Assembly: GCA_010028905.1 (NCBI GenBank)
Contig: RGZZ01000001.1
Span: 1-51,123, forward strand
Origin: Pseudomonadota bacterium
GTDB lineage: Bacteria > Vulcanimicrobiota > Xenobia > RGZZ01
Direction: 5' to 3'
DNA length: 51,123 nucleotides
The notes below the pieces were generated by a model that had not been told where the DNA came from, did no database searches, and saw nothing but the letters and a program-made list of their open reading frames with translations. The position numbers were made by a program, and so were the translations under genes. This document shows positions 40,320 through 49,135 of the stretch, one piece after another. Each line of letters starts with the position of its first letter. The first letter of the stretch is position 1.

Positions 40320-40742
40320 CTACTTCAGCAGGATGCCGCTGGTGACGTACTGGGGGTAGCCCGGGCTGCACAGGTCAGAGACCACGGTGGAGTGCACGCC
40401 CTGGCAGAACAGGGTGAACATGGTGCCGGTGCTGTACGAGTAGGTGTAGGTCGCGCCGTTGCTTGGGCAGATGATGTTCGAAGGCAGGTAGGGACGGGTG
40501 CCAGACGTGGCCGTGGTGAGCAGCGTCAGGGCGCTGGGCAGCTGCTGGCCGTTGTCGTTGGCGTAGAGGTTGACGGCCTTGGCGATGGTGTTCAGGTTGC
40601 CCTGGCAGGCCGTGAACTGGGCCACGAAGCGGGCTCGCGCGAAGCGAGGCATGAGGATGGCGGCCAGCAGGCCGATGATGACGAGTACCGTGAGCAGTTC
40701 GACGAGGGTGAAGCCTCGTGCCGAGCGACGTTTCAAATGCAT
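40320..40742 (-). CDS. Prepilin-type N-terminal cleavage/methylation domain protein (type IV pilin / pseudopilin-like), paralog 1
   Basis: MHLKRRSARG|FTLVELLTVLVIIGLLAAIL is a class III signal peptide. GGAGG lies 10 nt upstream of ATG 40742. Four conserved Cys. Confidence 0.85.
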   Translation of the reverse strand: MHLKRRSARGFTLVELLTVLVIIGLLAAILMPRFARARFVAQFTACQGNLNTIAKAVNLYANDNGQQLPSALTLLTTATSGTRPYLPSNIICPSNGATYTYSYSTGTMFTLFCQGVHSTVVSDLCSPGYPQYVTSGILLK

Positions 40743-40860
40743 GCCAGACAAGCCTCCGCAAGCGCTTTTCTGGCATGTTTTTGCGGAGGCTCCTGAAATC
40801 CTTCAGGGTCTTTTACTCTGTTCTGCTTGCGCGTCTACGTAACGAGAGACGCGCAATGGG

Positions 40861-41295
40861 TCATTTCAGCACGATTCCGCTGGTGACGTACTGTGGGTAT
40901 CCTGCACCGCACAGGTCGGAGACCACGGTGGAGTGAACGCCCTGGCAGTACAGTGTGAAGAGGGTGCCGGTGCTGTAGGCATAGGTGTACGACGCACCAT
41001 TGCTCGGACAGTTGAGCTTGTTTGGAAGGTAGGGTCGGGTGCCAGACGTGGCCGTGGTGAGCAGCGTCAGGGTACTGGGCAGCTGCTGACCGTTGTCGTT
41101 GGCGTAGAGGTTGACGGCCTTGGCGACGGTGTTCATGTTGCCCTGGCAGGCCGTGAACTGGGCCACGAAGCGGGCTCGCGCGAAGCGAGGCATGAGGATG
41201 GCGGCCAGCAGGCCGATGATGACGAGTACGGTAAGGAGCTCCACGAGTGTGAAGCCACGCTGCTGGTGCCGCGTCGTTCGGCATGCTGCCGTCAT
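40861..41295 (-). CDS. Prepilin-type N-terminal cleavage/methylation domain protein, paralog 2
   Basis: MTAACRTTRHQQRG|FTLVELLTVLVIIGLLAAIL. AAGGAGG lies 7 nt upstream. Highly similar to paralog 1 along its whole length. Confidence 0.85.
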   Translation of the reverse strand: MTAACRTTRHQQRGFTLVELLTVLVIIGLLAAILMPRFARARFVAQFTACQGNMNTVAKAVNLYANDNGQQLPSTLTLLTTATSGTRPYLPNKLNCPSNGASYTYAYSTGTLFTLYCQGVHSTVVSDLCGAGYPQYVTSGIVLK

Positions 41296-41404: not shown

Positions 41405-41465
41405 AACCTCATTGGCGCCACGATGAACAGCCCGAGTGCTGTGGCAGGGTTTGGTTCCAGGAGTG

Positions 41466-41936
41466 ATGAATACAGCCCCCATGGCAAAGCAGAGCGTCTC
41501 CTTCTCCTCCGGATTGACCCAGAAAGCCATGATTCTCGGCGTCGCGCCCGTGATCGTGGCCTTGTACTCCATCTGGAACGGTGTGTACTACATCAACAAG
41601 TTCCCCGGCGCGGGAAACCTGCCGTTCCTGCTGCTGTTCAGCATCCTGCCGCTCGTCTTCGGAATCGGCATCGTGGCCTTCACGGCCTTCGTCATCTCGA
41701 AGAACCTGGGGAGAAAGCTCGTCATCAATCCCGACGGGCTCGTCTACACACACGGCAAGGAGAGCGTCGCGTTCTCGTGGGCGCTGGCCGCGTTCTCCCT
41801 GCCGCGCACCGGGAAGCTCTACCGCACGCTGGCCATCACCGATGGCAAGAAGGTGGTTCGCGTCGAGGAGCTGTTCTTCAACGATTTCGACCACATTGCG
41901 CAGACCGTCGCCGACGCCAAGGGCGGCAAGCGCTGA
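41466..41936 (+). CDS. Membrane protein, two TM helices plus a small cytoplasmic domain (possibly PH-like)
   Basis: TM segments MILGVAPVIVALYSIW and LPFLLLFSILPLVFGIGIVAFTAFVI. Good codon usage. Start ambiguous (GTG 41436, ATG 41466 or ATG 41481) and none has a well-spaced SD. Confidence 0.5.
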   Translation: MNTAPMAKQSVSFSSGLTQKAMILGVAPVIVALYSIWNGVYYINKFPGAGNLPFLLLFSILPLVFGIGIVAFTAFVISKNLGRKLVINPDGLVYTHGKESVAFSWALAAFSLPRTGKLYRTLAITDGKKVVRVEELFFNDFDHIAQTVADAKGGKR

Positions 41937-41960: not shown

Positions 41961-42722
41961 TCACTCCTCGGCTTCGCGGCGCTTGCGCATGATCGACCAG
42001 GTGATGGCCGCCGCGGGAACAGCCGTGAACAGGTAGGCGGCTGCGAGCCATGGGCCGCTTCCCCACAAAACCCAGCCTTCCACCGCGAACGCGGCGATGC
42101 AGGCGGCCATGACGGTCAGCCACGTGCTCACGGGCCTTCTCGGAAAGCGGTCGACCAGGCACTGGCCAGACAGACCGTCGACAATGATGCGGTAGGAGCG
42201 CCCGTTGTAGTTATACGGGAACTCGAAGAGGGGCACGCGTATCAGCCAGGTCTGAAGCCCGTCTTCCTCTGTGCCACCGACCTGGGACAGGGCAGACTCG
42301 AGGGGCACGGTGGGCGCGGCCGTCTCCTCGTCACCGTCGTAGCTGGGTTCCGGCACGACGAAGCGGGCGGGGATCTCGACGTTTCGCAGCTCTCGGAGCA
42401 CGGTCTTGACGGCGGGCACGAGGCTCTGGCGATCGTATCCGATCTCCCCGCCACTGAAGCTCCAGAAAAGGAACTCATAGGCCTTTGCCTGGCCGAACGC
42501 CATCTCGCCGTTCAGCTTCGCGGGACCGGCCTGCGCCTCCATCCAGCCCTTCATGAGGGCCGTGGCCTCGATGAGGTCGAGGGTCGGGCGTAGGCGGAAG
42601 AACGGCACGAGGCGGTCGTCACAGGCAAACGCCGCCTGGTTGCAGTTGAAGCATCGCACGAAGGTGGAGCCTTCGTCGACGACCACCGTGTTGCCGCACT
42701 GGGTGCAGGGAAGCACCGGCAT
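41961..42722 (-). CDS. Zinc-ribbon protein with two C-terminal TM helices, unknown function
   Basis: N-terminal CTQCG-x14-CFNC Zn ribbon. C-terminal helices VSTWLTVMAACIAAFAVEGWVLW and PWLAAAYLFTAVPAAAITWSI. Confidence 0.65.
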   Translation of the reverse strand: MPVLPCTQCGNTVVVDEGSTFVRCFNCNQAAFACDDRLVPFFRLRPTLDLIEATALMKGWMEAQAGPAKLNGEMAFGQAKAYEFLFWSFSGGEIGYDRQSLVPAVKTVLRELRNVEIPARFVVPEPSYDGDEETAAPTVPLESALSQVGGTEEDGLQTWLIRVPLFEFPYNYNGRSYRIIVDGLSGQCLVDRFPRRPVSTWLTVMAACIAAFAVEGWVLWGSGPWLAAAYLFTAVPAAAITWSIMRKRREAEE

Positions 42723-42952
42723 ACCTCCGTTGCCGGTGGAACCGGCCTTCTCTAGGATTGGAGCATTCCCACCGAGGTCCTGCTTCGCGCGATGTCGCGG
42801 TGCTCACCAAGCCTGCGTGGCGGTGGGGCACGAGGCGCCTCCTCTCGGTGCGGGCTGAAGAGGCGCAGGGAGGACTTTTGCCCCTCTTCCTTAACTCTCC
42901 CTCGGCTTTTCCTGAGGCGTCGCCTCGGAACAAGGGCCGTCAATGACAAGCG

Positions 42953-43555
42953 ATGACCGCCACGTGGTCTCGCTGCGCAAAGGTGACCGCAGTGTCCAGA
43001 CTCGTTCTTGCATTCAAGATGTTCTTTCTCATCATCTTCAACGGAGCCATTGCCGACGCTGTGCGGCAGGCCTATGAGGCCGTACGCGCGGGCAGGCAGA
43101 TCCCCACGGCCGCCGCGCCGCCTCCGTCGAAGGAAGGAGCCGGCAAGAAGCCGGGCAAGGGGCCATCGGCCGAGCCTGGGCTCGGCGCCGTGGCGGCCGT
43201 GCTCTCGCTGCTGCAGCGCGAGGCCCGTTTCGTCGACTTCCTCATGGAAGACATCGATGGCTACAGCGACGCCCAGGTGGGCGCGGCCTCGAAGGGCGTG
43301 CACCGCGGCTGTCGCAAGGCGCTGCGCGAGTACATCGAGCTGCAGCCCGTGCGGGTCGAGAAAGAGGGCGACAACCTCACCGTCGAGGTCGGTTTCGACG
43401 CCAGCGCCATTCGACTCGTGGGCAATGTCACGGGCGATCCGCCGTTCAAGGGGCGCCTCGTGCACCCGGGATGGCGCGTGGTGAAGGCCAGCGTGCCCAC
43501 CCCGCCCGCTTCGCAGGATGAGACCATCGTGATGCCCGCCGAGGTCGAGATCTAG
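42953..43555 (+). CDS. DUF2760 domain protein
   Basis: LLQREARFVDFLMEDIDGYSDAQVGAASKGVHRGCRKALREY … GDPPFKGRLVHPGW … VMPAEVEI matches my recollection of the DUF2760 family. N-terminus is amphipathic (RLVLAFKMFFLIIFNG). The true start may be GTG 42992 (AAGGTG upstream), giving MSRLVLAF…. Confidence 0.75.
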   Translation: MTATWSRCAKVTAVSRLVLAFKMFFLIIFNGAIADAVRQAYEAVRAGRQIPTAAAPPPSKEGAGKKPGKGPSAEPGLGAVAAVLSLLQREARFVDFLMEDIDGYSDAQVGAASKGVHRGCRKALREYIELQPVRVEKEGDNLTVEVGFDASAIRLVGNVTGDPPFKGRLVHPGWRVVKASVPTPPASQDETIVMPAEVEI

Positions 43556-43558
43556 CGG

Positions 43559-46390
43559 TTGGCTCGCAGCAGCCGGTACATCATCGGCATCGACCTGGGC
43601 ACCACCAACTCTGCCATCGCCTATGTCGAGCGCCGTCGCCACGAAGCGGCCGTGGTCACGCCCTTCCCCGTCACGCAGCGCGTCTCTGAGCATCAGGTGG
43701 CCGCGCGGCGCACCGTGCCGTCGTTCCTCTACCTGCCAGGCGAGCACGAGCTGCCGCCCCAGGCGCTCTCCCTTCCCTGGACCGATGACGTCACCAACGT
43801 GGTGGGCGAGTTTGCTCGCGCCCAGGGCGCCCGCATCCCCACGCGCCTGGTGAAATCGGCCAAGTCGTGGCTGTGCCATGCCCGCGCCGATCGCACGGGC
43901 CCCATCTTGCCGTGGGACGCGCCGCCCGACGTGCAGCGCGTCTCGCCGGTCGAGGCCTCGGCGCGCTACCTGGCCCACGTTCGTGACGCCTGGGACCATC
44001 AGTTCGGCAAGCAGGCCCGCTTCCAGGACCAGGAGGTCGTGCTCTGCGTGCCCGCCAGCTTCAACGAGGTGGCGCGTGAGCTCACCGTGCAGGCCGCGGG
44101 TCTGGCCGGCATGGAGGACATCACCCTGCTCGAAGAGCCGCAGGCGGCCTTCTACGCCTGGCTCGATCGTCATCGCGACGACTGGCTCGGCCCCCTCGCC
44201 GAGGCGCGCAGCATTCTCGTCTGCGACATCGGTGGGGGCACTACCGACTTCACCATGATCGACGTCACGCAAGAGGGCGATGTCCCTGCGCTTCGTCGCG
44301 TGGCGGTGGGCGAGCACATCATGCTGGGCGGCGACAACATGGATCTGGCCATCGCCCACGTGGTCGAGCAGGCCTTGGGGGAGCGCTACGACTCGCGCTC
44401 CTGGGGGGTGCTGGTGCACGAGTGCCGCGGTGCCAAGGAGGCGCTGCTCGCGCCAGACGCGCCGGAAGAGTTCACCGTGGCCATCGCGGGAAGGGGCAGC
44501 CGTCTCATCGGAGGCGCCACCACGGTTGGGCTGCCGCGTGACGACGTGCGCCAGATCATTCTCGAGGGCTTCTTCCCCCTGTCTCCCTACGGTCAAGATC
44601 CCAGTGTGGCGCGACGCAGCGCCCTTGCCGAGTGGGGGCTGCCCTACGCCTCCGATCCCGCGGTGTCGCATCATCTGTCGGCCTTCCTGCGCCACCAGGG
44701 CGGCATCGAAGACCCCTCGCGCATTCCCGACGTGGTGCTGTTCAACGGCGCCGCGCTCGAGCCCGAGATCTTGCGCGAGCGGGTGCTCGACGTCATGCAG
44801 GGCTGGTCGGGGCATCGGCCGCGGGCCCTGCCCCATCACGACCTCGAGCTGGCCGTGGCGCGCGGCGCCGCATACTTCGGATGGGTGCGCGAGAACGGCG
44901 GCCTGCGCATCGCGGGCGGCACGGCCCGGGCCTACTACGTGGGCATCGCGGGCGGTCCGCCGCCCCAGGCCGCATGCCTCATCCCCCGCGGACTCGAGGA
45001 AGGGCAGAGCGTCGAGATCACCGAGCCGGAGTTCAAGGTGGTGGTCGATCGGCCGGTGGCGTTCCCGCTGTACACCTCGAGCGTTCGCCACGGCGACGGT
45101 GCGGGCGACCTCGTGACCCTCGACAGCGAGAACTTTCAGGGGCTGCCGCCCCTGGCCACGGTGCTGGGCACGAAGCGCCGCGAGTCCGCGCGCGCGGGCG
45201 CAAGCGCGGCCGATCGCGCCGCGGAACCGGCCGAGGGCGCGGCCGATGCAGACGCACCTCTCGAGGCCTCAGAAGAGATGTCGGTGCATCTGCGCGCGCG
45301 GGTCACCGAGATCGGCACCCTCGAGCTCTGGTGCGTCGGGCGCGAGAGCAGCCGCAAGTGGCGCCTGCAGTTCGAGCTGCGCGGCGCGGCCGAGGTGGCG
45401 GTGGGCTCTGCATCGGTGGCCGCGGCGCCCACCGAAGATCCGGTGGCGGTGCGCCAGGCGTGCCAGCGCATCGTCGAGACCTTCAGCGTCAAGCCCACGC
45501 GCATGTCGGCCTCTGACCTCAAGCCTCGCGGCCTCATGTGGGCCCTCGAGGAGACGTTGCGCGAGAAGCGCGATGGCTGGTCGCTGGGGCTGCTGCGTGA
45601 CGTGTGGGAAGCCCTCGATCGGGTGAAGCACCGCCGTCGCAGCAGCGCCGAGCACGAGGGGCCGTGGCTCAACATGTGTGGCTTCTCGCTGCGCCCGGGC
45701 TTCGGCTACCCGCTCGATGACTGGCGGGTGAACCGCACGTGGGCGCTGTTCGAGCATGGGTTGCAGTTCCCCAGAACAATCAACGGGCGACTCGAGTGGT
45801 GGGTGCTGTGGCGACGCATCGCGGGAGGGCTCGACCGCGATCGCCAGCGCGCGGTGCTCGACGAGCTGGCGCCGCATCTGCTCAGCGGGCTGAAGCATGT
45901 GAAGACGCGTCTCGGGCCGCCGGCGAGCAGCGCCGAGTGGAGCGAGATCATGCGCCTGGCGGCGTCGCTCGAGCGCGTTGACGCGGGGGTGAAGCAGCGT
46001 CTCGGGCAGGCGGCCATCGAGCGCCTCGAGAAGCGCCCGGGCAGCCTCGAGTACTGGATGCTGGCGCGTCTCGGCGCCCGCGTCTCGCTAGCCGCCAGCC
46101 CGCAGTTCTGCGTGCCGCCAGACGTGGTCGAGGAATGGATCCGCTTCCTGCTCGCGCAGGGTTGGAAGGATCCGCGCATGGCCGGTTTCGCCGTCACCCA
46201 GATGGGGCGCCTTACGGGCGATCGAGCGCGCGACCTGCCCGAAGACGTGCGCCTGGCGGCGGTGAAGCGGCTGCGCGAGGAGCAGCTCGATGCGCTCACC
46301 GCGCCGCTGCTCGATCTGGTCGAGCTGGCTGACGACGAGAAGGCCACATTCGCGGGCGAGTCGCTGCCTGTGGGCCTTCGCATCGCGTAA
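43559..46390 (+). CDS. Non-canonical Hsp70 family ATPase with a long helical C-terminal extension (943 aa)
   Basis: IIGIDLGTTNSAIAY, VLCVPASFNEVARELTVQAAGLAG and ILVCDIGGGTTDFTMIDV are Hsp70/actin-fold motifs. TTG start lies 3 nt after the DUF2760 stop. The C-terminal ~450 aa are unlike a DnaK substrate-binding domain. Confidence 0.88.
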   Translation: MARSSRYIIGIDLGTTNSAIAYVERRRHEAAVVTPFPVTQRVSEHQVAARRTVPSFLYLPGEHELPPQALSLPWTDDVTNVVGEFARAQGARIPTRLVKSAKSWLCHARADRTGPILPWDAPPDVQRVSPVEASARYLAHVRDAWDHQFGKQARFQDQEVVLCVPASFNEVARELTVQAAGLAGMEDITLLEEPQAAFYAWLDRHRDDWLGPLAEARSILVCDIGGGTTDFTMIDVTQEGDVPALRRVAVGEHIMLGGDNMDLAIAHVVEQALGERYDSRSWGVLVHECRGAKEALLAPDAPEEFTVAIAGRGSRLIGGATTVGLPRDDVRQIILEGFFPLSPYGQDPSVARRSALAEWGLPYASDPAVSHHLSAFLRHQGGIEDPSRIPDVVLFNGAALEPEILRERVLDVMQGWSGHRPRALPHHDLELAVARGAAYFGWVRENGGLRIAGGTARAYYVGIAGGPPPQAACLIPRGLEEGQSVEITEPEFKVVVDRPVAFPLYTSSVRHGDGAGDLVTLDSENFQGLPPLATVLGTKRRESARAGASAADRAAEPAEGAADADAPLEASEEMSVHLRARVTEIGTLELWCVGRESSRKWRLQFELRGAAEVAVGSASVAAAPTEDPVAVRQACQRIVETFSVKPTRMSASDLKPRGLMWALEETLREKRDGWSLGLLRDVWEALDRVKHRRRSSAEHEGPWLNMCGFSLRPGFGYPLDDWRVNRTWALFEHGLQFPRTINGRLEWWVLWRRIAGGLDRDRQRAVLDELAPHLLSGLKHVKTRLGPPASSAEWSEIMRLAASLERVDAGVKQRLGQAAIERLEKRPGSLEYWMLARLGARVSLAASPQFCVPPDVVEEWIRFLLAQGWKDPRMAGFAVTQMGRLTGDRARDLPEDVRLAAVKRLREEQLDALTAPLLDLVELADDEKATFAGESLPVGLRIA

Positions 46391-46433: not shown

Positions 46434-48518
46434 ATGAACCCGGAACTGCGATGGACGATCTACGAGCAGCAGGCGGCCCAGGGCGCGGCCGATGCGGCCT
46501 ATGAGCAGGCGTGGGGGCGACGGATGGCCGATGAGCTGCGCGCCACGGGTGCTGTGCGCATGACGCCGAGCCAGGCGCTGTCTCTACCTGATCTGGTGAT
46601 GGTGTCGTTCTATCGCGCGCTTGCGGGTGACCATCGGCTGAAGCCGGCCTTCGATTCTTCGTGGATGCTCGACACCGACTTCGCGTTCGTGAACATCCGC
46701 GCGTGCAGCCCTGACCCGACCCGCACCGGCCGCGTCACCGACGCGCTCAAGATCCTCCCCACCATGCGGGTGAGCGGCATCCACCTGGCCCCGTTCTTCG
46801 ACAACACCCTCGAGAACCTGTATGCGGTCGACAGCGTGCGCGTCGTCTCTGATGCGGTGCTCGATCCCTCGCTGGTCGAGGCGGGGCTCGATGGCGACGC
46901 GCAGATCTGCCTGCTGGTCGACGCCATCCACACCCTGGGGTGGCGCGTGGGGTTCGATCTTGAGCCCCACACGAGCAACTTCTCGCGTATCGCGCTGGCC
47001 AATCCGAAGTGCTTCCGATGGGTGCGCCTCTCGCCCGATCGCAAGACCCTGTACGGCAAGGTCACACAAGAGAAGATGCTCACGCCCACGGCGCAGAAGC
47101 GCCTCGTGAAAGAGGTGTCGGCCATCGTCGCCGACACCCTCGCGCGCCACGGGCTCAAGGCGGTTGAAGACCTCTCGAAGGGCGTGGCGGCCGTGCGGGC
47201 CTGCCACGATGAGACCCTGCATCGGCTCATCGACGAGGGATACTGGACCCTTCCCAGCCACACGTGGAGCGGCGCGGGCCTGCCACGCTACGAACACTGG
47301 GTCGAGAAGGGGCTGTTCAGCCACCCCGACTACACCTATCTCAACGCGGCCGGCGAAGATCAGCGCGAGCACGCCTTTGGCATGCTCAGCCCCTACAAGC
47401 TGTTCGATCACCTGCCCATCAACGGGGTCGCCACGAGCGACGATCCGCCCGTGCCGGTGCCCGAGGCGCACGCCTTGCTGCAGGGCATCTTCCCCGATGT
47501 GCAGGCCCGCTACGGCTTCGATTTCGTGCGGCTCGACTACGTCGATCACGTCTTTGATTCGACCGTCGACGGAGACTGGACGCTTCCCGTGAGCGATCGC
47601 CTCGCTCCACGCACCCTCGAGAGCCTCTTGGCGGCGGCGCGTCGCGCGCGGCCCGAGACGGGGGCCATGGCCGAGCGCATGGGCGTCGATGTAGAAGACT
47701 ACGGCGCCCTTGGCTTCGACCTGCTGCTGGGCAGCGATGTGCTCACCGCCATGCACGACGACTATGTCACCTTCATGCTCGACCTGCAGCGCGAGCTCGA
47801 CAATGCCGATGCACACGCCCCACGCCCCATGACCCGCCTGGCGCCACGACCCGCGGGCCACGTCGATGGTGACGGCGCGCGGCGCTGCTCGGTGCTCGCC
47901 GCGGTCGACACCCACGACAGCGGCCATCCCTTGTTCTGGACGAAGCCGCTCTCTGACGTGGTGGGGCCCGAGGGCCTGCACCTGCGCCACTTCCTGGCGC
48001 GCTTCACGACGTGCGGATCGCGGCGCCGGCCGAAGTACGAGGTCATGGGCAATCAAGACATGTCGAGCGGGCTGTACGAGGCCAACAACAAGCCCGTGTC
48101 GCTCACATGGGCCGACGATCGCGCCTACAACGCCCGCTACCACGCCATTGAAGACGTGTTCGAATCGCTACGCCCCTTCCTCGCGGAGGCACGCATGGGG
48201 CTGTCGTACGTCGACCGCGAGGACCACTGGGCGGCCTGGTTCCTCGAGGGGGAGAACGAGCGCCTGCTCTGCGTCGCCGCCCTCGAGCCCAACGTGGGCC
48301 GGGTGGCCAGCTGGCTCGCCTCGCCGCCGGTGCTCGAGCCTACCGGGCGAATCACCATCGATGTGTGCGTGGGGCGCGACTGGGGCTGGGCCACGGTGAC
48401 CGCGCTGCCCATCGATGGAGGTGAGGCAGAGGTCGTGGGGCTCGACGGCAAGATGCTGAGCCTCGATTCACTTGCGCGCCAGGGGTGCCGCGCATATCGG
48501 GTGGTGCGGGCGGGGTAG
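46434..48518 (+). CDS. Alpha-amylase family (GH13-like) protein
   Basis: Start trimmed to ATG 46434 (GAGGAGAAGG upstream). GH13 conserved regions by eye: VGFDLEPHTSN (I), GFDFVRLDYVDHV (II), GAMAERMG (III) and AAVDTHDSG (IV). No signal peptide. Confidence 0.72.
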   Translation: MNPELRWTIYEQQAAQGAADAAYEQAWGRRMADELRATGAVRMTPSQALSLPDLVMVSFYRALAGDHRLKPAFDSSWMLDTDFAFVNIRACSPDPTRTGRVTDALKILPTMRVSGIHLAPFFDNTLENLYAVDSVRVVSDAVLDPSLVEAGLDGDAQICLLVDAIHTLGWRVGFDLEPHTSNFSRIALANPKCFRWVRLSPDRKTLYGKVTQEKMLTPTAQKRLVKEVSAIVADTLARHGLKAVEDLSKGVAAVRACHDETLHRLIDEGYWTLPSHTWSGAGLPRYEHWVEKGLFSHPDYTYLNAAGEDQREHAFGMLSPYKLFDHLPINGVATSDDPPVPVPEAHALLQGIFPDVQARYGFDFVRLDYVDHVFDSTVDGDWTLPVSDRLAPRTLESLLAAARRARPETGAMAERMGVDVEDYGALGFDLLLGSDVLTAMHDDYVTFMLDLQRELDNADAHAPRPMTRLAPRPAGHVDGDGARRCSVLAAVDTHDSGHPLFWTKPLSDVVGPEGLHLRHFLARFTTCGSRRRPKYEVMGNQDMSSGLYEANNKPVSLTWADDRAYNARYHAIEDVFESLRPFLAEARMGLSYVDREDHWAAWFLEGENERLLCVAALEPNVGRVASWLASPPVLEPTGRITIDVCVGRDWGWATVTALPIDGGEAEVVGLDGKMLSLDSLARQGCRAYRVVRAG

Positions 48519-48679
48519 GGGGGCGAAAGCAGGCGCTCGCTGCTTCGCTCGGGGAATATCACCCAGGCGCCCCTCGGCACTGCTGGCAGCGATGCGGAAT
48601 GTTCGCTGGCAAGGCCGAGGAGAAGGTTGCGCCCCGCGGCTTGCGCTACGGAGACTACAACGCTCTGGAGGACCTCCCC

Positions 48680-49135
48680 ATGTCTCGTGCTCGATCTCGT
48701 TCGTGGACTCTCCTGCTTGGGGCCGTCATTCTCCTCACATCCGTGCAACTGGTGGCTGTCAGCTTGCCGGGTCTGGCTTCGTCTGGCATCGAGGTGCGCC
48801 GTGAGGGTCGTTCCTGGGCCACAATGGAAGACGATGGCAACATCCGCATCAATGGGGTCAGTGTCGGCCGCATCGATCGCGATGGCACGGTACGCCGAGA
48901 CGGGCGACGCGTCGGTCGTGTCGAGGCCGACGGTGACATCTACCGGGAGGGACGTCACTACGGCAAGATTCACGATGACGGCACGTTGCGCGTCGATGGC
49001 CGCAGTGTGGGCCGCATCGCCACAGACGGCGACATCCATCGCAACGGCCGCTCGTGGGGAAGAGCCCGTCCCTACAACGTGGGCGATCGCTTCTGGATCG
49101 CCGCTCTGCTCGTGTTCTTCAGCGGAGACCTCTGA
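48680..49135 (+). CDS. Membrane-anchored protein composed of six 16-residue repeats
   Basis: Start trimmed to ATG 48680 (GGAGG 9 nt upstream). N-terminal anchor WTLLLGAVILLTSVQLVAV. Repeats follow G-x-[IVL]-[RYH]-x-x-G-[RV]-x-x-G-[RK]-[IV]-x-x-D across 48785-49075. Hydrophobic C-terminus FWIAALLVFF. Confidence 0.7.
   Translation: MSRARSRSWTLLLGAVILLTSVQLVAVSLPGLASSGIEVRREGRSWATMEDDGNIRINGVSVGRIDRDGTVRRDGRRVGRVEADGDIYREGRHYGKIHDDGTLRVDGRSVGRIATDGDIHRNGRSWGRARPYNVGDRFWIAALLVFFSGDL

Follow-up and report, generated by a model that had tools for sequence, protein, structure and literature searches.

The gene pair at positions 42,953 to 46,390 of a 51,123-nucleotide stretch of contig RGZZ01000001.1 (GenBank assembly GCA_010028905.1, Pseudomonadota bacterium, placed by GTDB in Vulcanimicrobiota; Xenobia; RGZZ01) is securely identified as a genuine copy of a module widespread in bacteria, in which a DUF2760 protein is encoded with one or two paralogous non-canonical Hsp70 ATPases, and it represents the form of that module without the short paralogue. 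The stretch, taken at its full length, is referred to here as the window. A preliminary description prepared from the sequence had proposed two open reading frames (ORFs) 3 nt apart on the + strand, and we found both, ORF 42953–43555 (+) and ORF 43559–46390 (+), with a gap of 3 nt, so that the observation as a whole was confirmed. The smaller product, 200 aa as listed, matched PF10816 as had been expected of a DUF2760 protein (E 1.3e-47; 161.1 bits against a cut-off of 25; profile positions 7–124 of 124), and all 18 columns that are invariant in the family (alignment A1) are present in it. The 943-aa product of the larger ORF matched PF00012 (E 3.8e-19; 68.8 bits against a cut-off of 20.6) and PF12531, that is DUF3731 or "DNA-K related protein" (aa 696–942, nt 45644–46384, +; E 1.7e-74; 251.3 bits against a cut-off of 25; full profile), a combination common to all 120 listed homologues. 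A scan with the DUF2760 profile, using one genome per GTDB species, gave confirmed relatives in at least 592 species, and the Hsp70 search gave at least 8,000 scored clusters; the module is among the most widespread examples of bacterial DnaK derivatives. The pair is an ordinary member of this catalogued but mechanistically unexplained module and adds no new family; its value is that of one data point, which shows that the cluster does not always encode the short paralogue, and the interest lies in the family rather than in the locus.

Architecture of the 943-residue Hsp70 paralogue

The Hsp70/actin-fold motifs named in the preliminary description were located in the 943-aa protein, with IIGIDLGTTNSAIAY at aa 8, VLCVPASFNEVAR... 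at aa 161 and ILVCDIGGGTTDF at aa 219. The PF00012 match had been expected over roughly the first half of the protein; the match itself is there, but it covers aa 8–276 only, corresponding to profile positions 1–241 of 599, or the first ~40%. NCBIfam models for DnaK and HscA gave about 68–82 bits against cut-offs of 620–1019, and the DnaK equivalogs TIGR02350 and PRK00290 gave 68.6 bits against 822.55 and 67.3 against 648, respectively. Because these scores are far below the cut-offs, the protein is not a canonical DnaK or HscA. In PHROGs, only generic Hsp70-like families of unknown function matched it. Long paralogues from other phyla share ~45% identity with the protein. For both window proteins, the nearest relatives that bear a name belong to Xenobia/Eremiobacterota, and the closest GTDB hit is locus L028.

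The AlphaFold2 (AF2) model of the protein, built with 56 homologues and having a mean predicted local distance difference test (pLDDT) score of 84.9, falls into three parts. The ATPase (nucleotide-binding) domain, aa 1–446 (43559–44896, +), is the part supported by PF00012 and by the matches to DnaK in the PDB. It is followed by a nine-strand, beta-rich middle domain, aa 458–605 (44930–45373, +), and by an all-helical domain that spans aa 628–935 in the model and, with the last residues and the stop codon, occupies aa 628–943 (45440–46390, +), including the DUF3731 match. The C-terminal ~450 aa are therefore a beta domain followed by a helical domain rather than one featureless region. In the preliminary description, this part had been treated as unassigned sequence, which was not borne out, DUF3731 being a catalogued Pfam family that had not been named. 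It had also been said to resemble neither the beta-sandwich nor the lid of DnaK; this was correct in that sequence similarity is lacking and DUF3731 takes the place of the lid, but aa 458–605 may be similar by fold to the beta subdomain of the Hsp70 substrate-binding domain (SBD-beta). The reported Leu/Arg/Trp richness, exemplified by RLEWWVLWRR... at aa 744, was found to be modest (L 14.5, R 10.9 and W 4.0%, compared with 9.3, 9.1 and 2.2% in the ATPase domain), and the DUF3731 domain is rich in invariant Arg and Trp (alignment A2). The C-terminus reads ...LPVGLRIA and, as had been noted, carries no EEVD tail.

Foldseek searches of the PDB with the model gave, as top matches, full-length Hsp70s in the ATP-bound, domain-docked state (DnaK 4B9Q, E 9e-22, and BiP-ATP). 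Superposition of the model on lid-less BiP in ATP-like states gave a template modelling (TM) score of 0.72 (target-normalised) and a root-mean-square deviation (rmsd) of 5.6–6.9 Å (5.9 Å for 6ZMD), whereas undocked Hsp70s of the same length gave TM of about 0.55 and rmsd >20 Å (0.55 and 23 Å for 6HAB); these are global Foldseek scores of the whole model with its coordinates uncropped. The comparison indirectly suggests that the modelled beta domain is SBD-beta-like and is docked on the ATPase domain. Our hidden Markov model (HMM) of the middle domain also matched the short paralogues, whose sequences stop just past this domain. Within the beta domain, aa 541–569 (window 45179–45265) form a low-confidence, charged insertion rich in Ala, Glu, Asp and Arg, which is a property of the window lineage and not of the family consensus. 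A loop insertion in the beta domain is a feature of Hsp110 proteins, which the position of this segment recalls.

Residues of the ATPase domain were mapped by alignment with E. coli DnaK. The equivalents of DnaK D8, K70, E171, D194 and T199, together with the glycine loops, were invariant in 110 long and 96 short paralogues, the window protein among them, and four departures from DnaK were common to both (R71S, Y145S, N170E and D231N). Of the two J-contact positions, N170 is occupied by Glu in all of these sequences (Glu192 in the window protein) and R167, the classic DnaJ-contact residue, mostly by Thr (Thr189 in the window protein). At the site of the adenosine-binding "GG" motif, where the window protein reads VVLFNGAALEPEI (aa 392), the second Gly is indeed replaced by Ala (NGA), as the preliminary description had suggested, but the deviation is small: the first Gly is kept, and NGA also occurs in 8 of the 110 long paralogues. 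The consensus of the Hsp70 paralogue family at this site is LFNGGAL, with both glycines retained.

DUF2760 and the composition of the module

The DUF2760 protein (42953–43555, +), which was characterized by PF10816, an AF2 model, alignment and hydropathy, contains RLVLAFKMFF at aa 16, LLQREARFVDF... at aa 86 and VMPAEVEI at aa 193. Its start codon is uncertain, with ATG 42953, GTG 42992 and ATG 43019 as candidates. With AGGTGA just upstream of it, GTG 42992 would yield a 187-aa product, equal in length to the close homologues P0123 and P0124; a start at ATG 43019 would yield 178 aa, in agreement with P0121, a database protein of 100% identity. The model (pLDDT 82) consists of an N-terminal helix, aa 13–45, a Pro/Ala/Lys linker at about aa 46–76 that is of low confidence or disordered, and a compact alpha/beta domain, aa 77–200, made of three helices and four strands. 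Foldseek comparison of this model with the PDB (best E 0.67) and with BFVD (best E 0.21) gave nothing significant, and for this reason DUF2760 is not recognisably GrpE-, J- or BAG-like.

The invariant residues of DUF2760 include Q88, R92, D95, D106, G110, H171, G173 and W174. An A-E-[VIL]-E tail lies 1–2 residues from the C-terminus in 114 of 120 homologues and likewise in the window protein, which ends in PAEVEI. In each of three contexts, namely trio, short paralogue only, and DUF2760 directly before the long gene, the same 21 positions, including the AEVE tail, show conservation in ≥85% of the sequences; these positions are largely conserved also in the six stand-alone genes. This pattern suggests that the conserved surface of DUF2760 targets something common to both Hsp70 paralogues, or a third party. 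Since the surface is conserved whichever paralogue adjoins, DUF2760 probably contacts the part that the two share, the ATPase and beta domains. In 53 of 116 homologues, the N-terminal segment reaches transmembrane-type hydropathy (Kyte–Doolittle mean ≥1.6 over 19 residues); some exceed 3.0 and are unmistakably transmembrane, and a few homologues have two extra hydrophobic segments. In the window protein, the corresponding segment LVLAFKMFFLIIFNGAIA has a mean hydropathy of 2.2. The earlier suggestion that DUF2760 acts at the membrane is plausible, since the hydrophobic N-terminus is a family trait and clearly transmembrane in some members.

We examined the gene neighbourhoods of the best 80 of the at least 592 DUF2760 loci, using HMMs that we built for DUF2760, for DUF3731 and for the ATPase and middle domains. 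An Hsp70 paralogue lies directly downstream in 68 of the 80; the pairing is therefore conserved and not due to chance, in agreement with the earlier statement that DUF2760 genes sit beside atypical Hsp70 genes in several phyla. The phyla concerned include Myxococcota, Planctomycetota, Desulfobacterota, Betaproteobacteria, Riflebacteria, Cloacimonadota and Xenobia. The full trio of DUF2760, a short Hsp70 (~610 aa, consisting of ATPase and middle domains without a lid) and a long Hsp70-DUF3731 was found at 38 loci, DUF2760 with the short paralogue only at 22, and the short paralogue followed by the contig end at 8. Six further loci, mostly in Gemmataceae, have DUF2760 alone, and another six are cut at the contig end; at none of these 80 GTDB loci does DUF2760 directly precede the long paralogue. 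The layout of the window appeared in a reverse census of 80 metagenome loci found via the long paralogue. Here, DUF2760 stands directly before the long gene at 10 loci, whereas the trio is present at 27 and the short and long genes at a contig end at six; the long gene is at the contig start with nothing visible upstream in 11 cases, and two loci are truncated.

The preliminary description had called the pair a two-gene module and had remarked on the absence of the short second Hsp70. The absence is real, with one Hsp70 ATPase domain in the 51-kb window, and two genes is a correct account of the local state, but the module normally has three, and the short-less state recurs elsewhere. It is also seen in loci L001–L005, and when 105 long paralogues were placed in a neighbour-joining tree, the loci of this kind were spread over at least five separate clades. 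The sister group of the window clade consists of Xenobia long paralogues that stand alone amid unrelated neighbours (L009/L010), and another Xenobia locus, from a metagenome-assembled genome (MAG; L064), has DUF2760 and the short paralogue together without a long gene, the module being split in Xenobia. Because short-less loci recur in separate clades, the window layout is a recurrent derived state of the three-gene module and not a separate system. Natural fusions of the short and long paralogues into one chain (P0010, P0011 and P0012; 1,499–1,536 aa) were found in Polyangiaceae and in two metagenome assemblies; since these single-chain fusions come from three independent assemblies, they argue, in the Rosetta-stone manner, that the two paralogues would act together as a physical pair. 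All-against-all clustering of ORFs at 85 loci recovered, as candidates for a fourth conserved partner, only DUF2760, the Hsp70s, antisense shadow ORFs and generic kinases.

Two loci carry interrupted Hsp70 genes. In Archangium gephyra PVMSAZ (L035, 12450–15250), the long Hsp70-DUF3731 gene is split over two reading frames, and in a MAG (L014) both Hsp70 genes are fragmented; these are either frameshift pseudogenes or assembly errors.

A candidate membrane-tethered machine

The explanation that we favour, tentatively, is that the module is a membrane-tethered, J-independent Hsp70 machine, with DUF2760 as its dedicated anchor and regulator. The 943-aa protein would be a complete Hsp70-type machine: its ATPase domain appears catalytically intact by its residues, the model places the beta domain in the position that SBD-beta has in ATP-bound DnaK or BiP, and DUF3731, a helical repeat domain of ~300 aa, would stand in place of the normal lid. 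The hydrophobic helix at the N-terminus of DUF2760 would serve as an anchor on the cytoplasmic side of the membrane, and a flexible linker would connect it to a novel alpha/beta domain with a near-invariant A-E-V-E-hydrophobic tail. As a dedicated partner, DUF2760 may recruit the ATPase to the membrane and take the targeting or regulating role that J-proteins have for DnaK, and ATP-driven binding and release could then remodel clients at the membrane without DnaJ or GrpE. We infer this independence from gene context and from the replaced J-contact residues. The claim that no dnaJ or grpE lies in the window was upheld by phmmer searches with the E. coli J-domain and GrpE, which gave no match at E≤10; among the ORFs of 90 related loci, the same kind of search gave no match at E≤1e-3. 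Both searches had the limited sensitivity of single-sequence queries. A bolder version of this proposal, which we consider doubtful, is that DUF2760 represents a new class of Hsp70 co-factor, membrane-anchored, non-J, of unmatched fold and equipped with a docking tail, which would replace DnaJ for a dedicated Hsp70 pair; the short-less form would then be a self-sufficient two-component machine independent of J-proteins and GrpE, and the window lineage may couple it to an alpha-glucan enzyme family, described below, of which a member elsewhere has gained its own J-domain. The tightly linked small partner is neither a J-protein nor GrpE, and should DUF2760 be a targeting or regulatory factor, co-factors of another class would be able to drive Hsp70 ATPases. 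For reconstitution in vitro, the pair without the short paralogue is the simplest version.

Several observations weigh against a membrane-tethered, J-independent machine. The anchoring of DUF2760 is read from hydropathy only, and the helix of the window protein holds a Lys, which leaves room for an amphipathic helix or for a peptide to which Hsp70 itself binds. The beta domain carries no sequence signal: hhalign comparison with the SBD of E. coli DnaK gave a probability of 0.1, and a search of PDB sequences with a profile of the domain found no Hsp70. Arg is kept at the R167 position in about a quarter of the long paralogues, and J-proteins encoded elsewhere could still act. In the reverse census, the long gene stands alone, with no DUF2760 nearby, at 24 of the 80 loci, and because of these loci the long protein evidently does not need a linked DUF2760 gene. 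The phenotypes of the Myxococcus xanthus orthologue, described next, are mild and are common to the deletions of three other, unrelated hsp70 genes.

A literature search for DUF2760, DUF3731, PF10816 and PF12531 found no paper in the library searched that mentions them, and one on Hsp70-family proteins in connection with operons and membranes likewise gave nothing; the preliminary description knew of no experimentally assigned function for the pair. As a statement that experimental data are lacking, this is too strong. M. xanthus carries the canonical trio (208, 620 and 925 aa), and the published primers for the knockout of MXAN_5323 match bases just before the ATG and just after the stop codon of the 925-aa gene; because the primers flank exactly this gene of the trio, MXAN_5323 is the orthologue of the 943-aa protein, and it has been deleted and phenotyped. 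The deletion mutant was reported to be viable, with normal growth, motility, predation and fruiting, and to show less sporulation, slower recovery and lower survival after hydrogen peroxide treatment. MXAN_5323 was modestly induced by hydrogen peroxide and was not induced by heat according to quantitative PCR, although the transcriptome data of the same paper listed it as a possible exception; at 37 °C, it failed to complement an E. coli dnaK mutant. By extrapolation from this orthologue, the role of the module is probably one in non-essential stress or stationary-phase proteostasis. The M. xanthus trio and the window pair have the same protein families, order, strand and tight spacing, and MXAN_5323 likewise has PF00012 and PF12531; unlike the trio, the window lacks the short paralogue and has lineage-specific Zn-ribbon and GH13-like genes. 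A preprint on M. xanthus transposon mutants makes no mention of the locus. The M. xanthus stkABC genes, considered as a possible instance of the module, were rejected, StkB being SCP2-like and StkC PhaE-like.

In Vibrio cholerae, VC1373–VC1375 have been listed as one operon with "DnaK-related proteins". HapR, a quorum-sensing regulator, was reported to activate the VC1375 promoter directly, both in vivo and in vitro, and VC1375–VC1373 were picked up in a screen for genes repressed in biofilms. Judged only by annotation names and the operon listing, VC1375–VC1373 are probably the same module, and if so, the module is under quorum-sensing control there.

The closest analogies to the proposed arrangement are found among other Hsp70 systems. 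E. coli HscC is a specialised, non-heat-shock Hsp70 encoded beside small, membrane-anchored, dedicated partners, the J-proteins DjlB and DjlC. The likeness to our module is one of concept: DUF2760 has no J-domain or HPD motif, and the C-terminal domain is different. In yeast, Ssb works in a triad with RAC, which consists of Ssz1 and Zuotin, and thus two paired Hsp70 paralogues are combined with one anchoring protein, the ribosome-binding J-protein Zuotin. Ssb (5TKY) was among our top structural matches; both bacterial paralogues look active, however, whereas Ssz1 is catalytically inert, and the anchor of the yeast triad is a J-protein. A further analogy is that of Tim44 with mitochondrial Hsp70.

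Hsp110 proteins offer a different model for the long paralogue. According to this alternative, which we consider rather unlikely, the long Hsp70-DUF3731 would be an Hsp110-like co-chaperone, serving mainly as a nucleotide-exchange factor or disaggregation enhancer for the housekeeping DnaK or for the short paralogue by pairing of ATPase domain with ATPase domain, rather than as a chaperone in its own right, and DUF2760 would only localise or regulate it. The succession of ATPase, beta and extended helical domains and the docked, ATP-like model resemble Hsp110/Sse1 and Grp170, with 2QXL and 3C7N as significant Foldseek matches; the pairing with a second Hsp70 has its counterpart in the natural fusions, which show two Hsp70 ATPase domains working together; and the charged, low-confidence insertion in the beta domain of the window lineage is of the kind found in Hsp110s, although it is lineage-specific and not a family trait. 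The sequence relation is nevertheless limited to the Hsp70 ATPase domain, the helical domain here being DUF3731 and not the Hsp110 lid, and the present module is bacterial and has a dedicated DUF2760 partner. The catalytic residues are strictly invariant in both paralogues, which is beyond the needs of an exchange factor. Fusion and linkage imply the short paralogue rather than DnaK as the partner, yet the short paralogue is missing at this locus, and MXAN_5323 was of no help to the E. coli dnaK mutant. A 2026 review, in which bacterial DnaK derivatives are called "dark matter", proposed exactly such Hsp110-like co-chaperone roles for them.

Neighbouring genes and less probable explanations

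The gene downstream of the pair, 46434–48518 (+), encodes a 694-aa divergent GH13-like (alpha-glucan) enzyme, an assignment based on its family profile. The gene is conserved in a lineage-specific manner and adjoins the module in L001–L005. It begins 43 nt after the Hsp70 gene, with GAGGAGAAGG before its ATG, and no terminator-like site was found between the two; from this arrangement, it is probably co-transcribed with the pair, and in L003 the corresponding gene overlaps the Hsp70 stop codon by 4 nt. The 694-aa protein matches nothing in Pfam. Its family is rare, with 156 representatives at E≤1e-3 in a search of 1.84 billion proteins, and the family profile matches the GH13 maltodextrin glycosyltransferase 1GJU around conserved regions I and II (E 3.5e-12). 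Distant members are fused to starch-synthase domains (four) or to alpha-amylase domains (one). A four-gene block, consisting of the Zn-ribbon gene (−), DUF2760, the long Hsp70 and the 670–700-aa gene, is kept while the flanks are rearranged, as seen in relatives whose Hsp70 is 66–81% identical to that of the window.

This persistence raises the possibility, which we regard as improbable, that the pair is a dedicated chaperone for the GH13-like enzyme or for a membrane-associated glucan process involving it. One family member, P0406, has an N-terminal J-domain with the HPD motif (33.3 bits against a cut-off of 27.8), and another, P0378, adjoins a PatA_N/TPR/DnaJ protein; there are thus three separate links to Hsp70 systems among seven gene contexts (the window lineage and six distant members), which hints at a recurring link between the enzyme family and Hsp70 systems. 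The adjacency, however, is limited to relatives with an Hsp70 at least 66% identical to that of the window, the J-domain is present in only 1 of 103 members scanned, four other members that we examined have no Hsp70-system gene nearby, and none of five more distant members lies next to a DUF2760/Hsp70 module. Across phyla, the module occurs without a GH13-like gene, and operon hitch-hiking explains the association equally well.

Less probable again is a role of the pair as a conflict or anti-phage component related to CnuD of Type III CoCoNuT (McrBC-type) systems, in which it would bind RNA rather than unfolded protein. CnuD has been described as having an Hsp70-like nucleotide-binding domain and SBD followed by HEAT-like helical repeats, with degenerate ATPase motifs; the domain order is that of the long paralogue, a comparison made by description only, whereas the ATPase motifs are intact here. 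The genes around the window module are housekeeping genes and include none that is McrB- or McrC-like, and neither such genes nor another conserved fourth gene were seen at the 85 loci. PADLOC-DB 2.0 gave no defence-model match for five local proteins at E≤0.01. DUF2760 relatives were found in none of 50,697 phage records or the IMG/VR contigs and in 11 of 72,556 plasmids, most of these being megabase-sized replicons. That the 943-aa protein is an actin/MreB-like filament former is very improbable, for the weak PF06723 (MreB_Mbl) match (E 1e-9, aa 150–270) covers the shared ASKHA core only, the Hsp70 matches are far stronger, the whole-model Foldseek matches are Hsp70s including the docked beta domain, and the Hsp70-specific catalytic Lys (K70 equivalent) is invariant.

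On the other side of the pair, the preliminary description had reported a divergently transcribed Zn-ribbon membrane protein, and the 253-aa ORF at 41961–42722 (−) fits this account, with an N-terminal CxxC...CxxC and a hydrophobic C-terminus. It matches no Pfam family above the cut-off, and its homologues occur at the same position in L001–L005 and L028 and at no other locus. Both transcription units presumably have their promoters in the divergent intergenic region, 42723–42952, where no element was recognised and the only inverted repeats are short and imperfect. Searches gave no sigma-70-like promoter near the module and neither a CIRCE heat-shock operator nor an Rfam element in the window. 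ORF 41436–41936 (+), which lies upstream of the Zn-ribbon gene and encodes 166 aa with two hydrophobic stretches, has no Pfam match above the cut-off; it is conserved in the closest relatives (L001, and as a fragment at the end of L002), absent from this position in L003 and found at no other locus. Downstream of the GH13-like gene, ORF 48485–49135 (+; 216 aa, the true start probably being later) encodes a hydrophobic segment and, after it, about five repeats in tandem, each of ~16 aa and of the type DGxIxxxGRxVGRI, and has no Pfam match at E≤0.01. Two tandem paralogous ORFs of ~143 aa, 40320–40751 (−) and 40861–41295 (−), have, as read from their translations only, a prepilin-type N-terminus (GFTLVELLTVLVIIGLLAAILMPRF) and nearly identical first halves.

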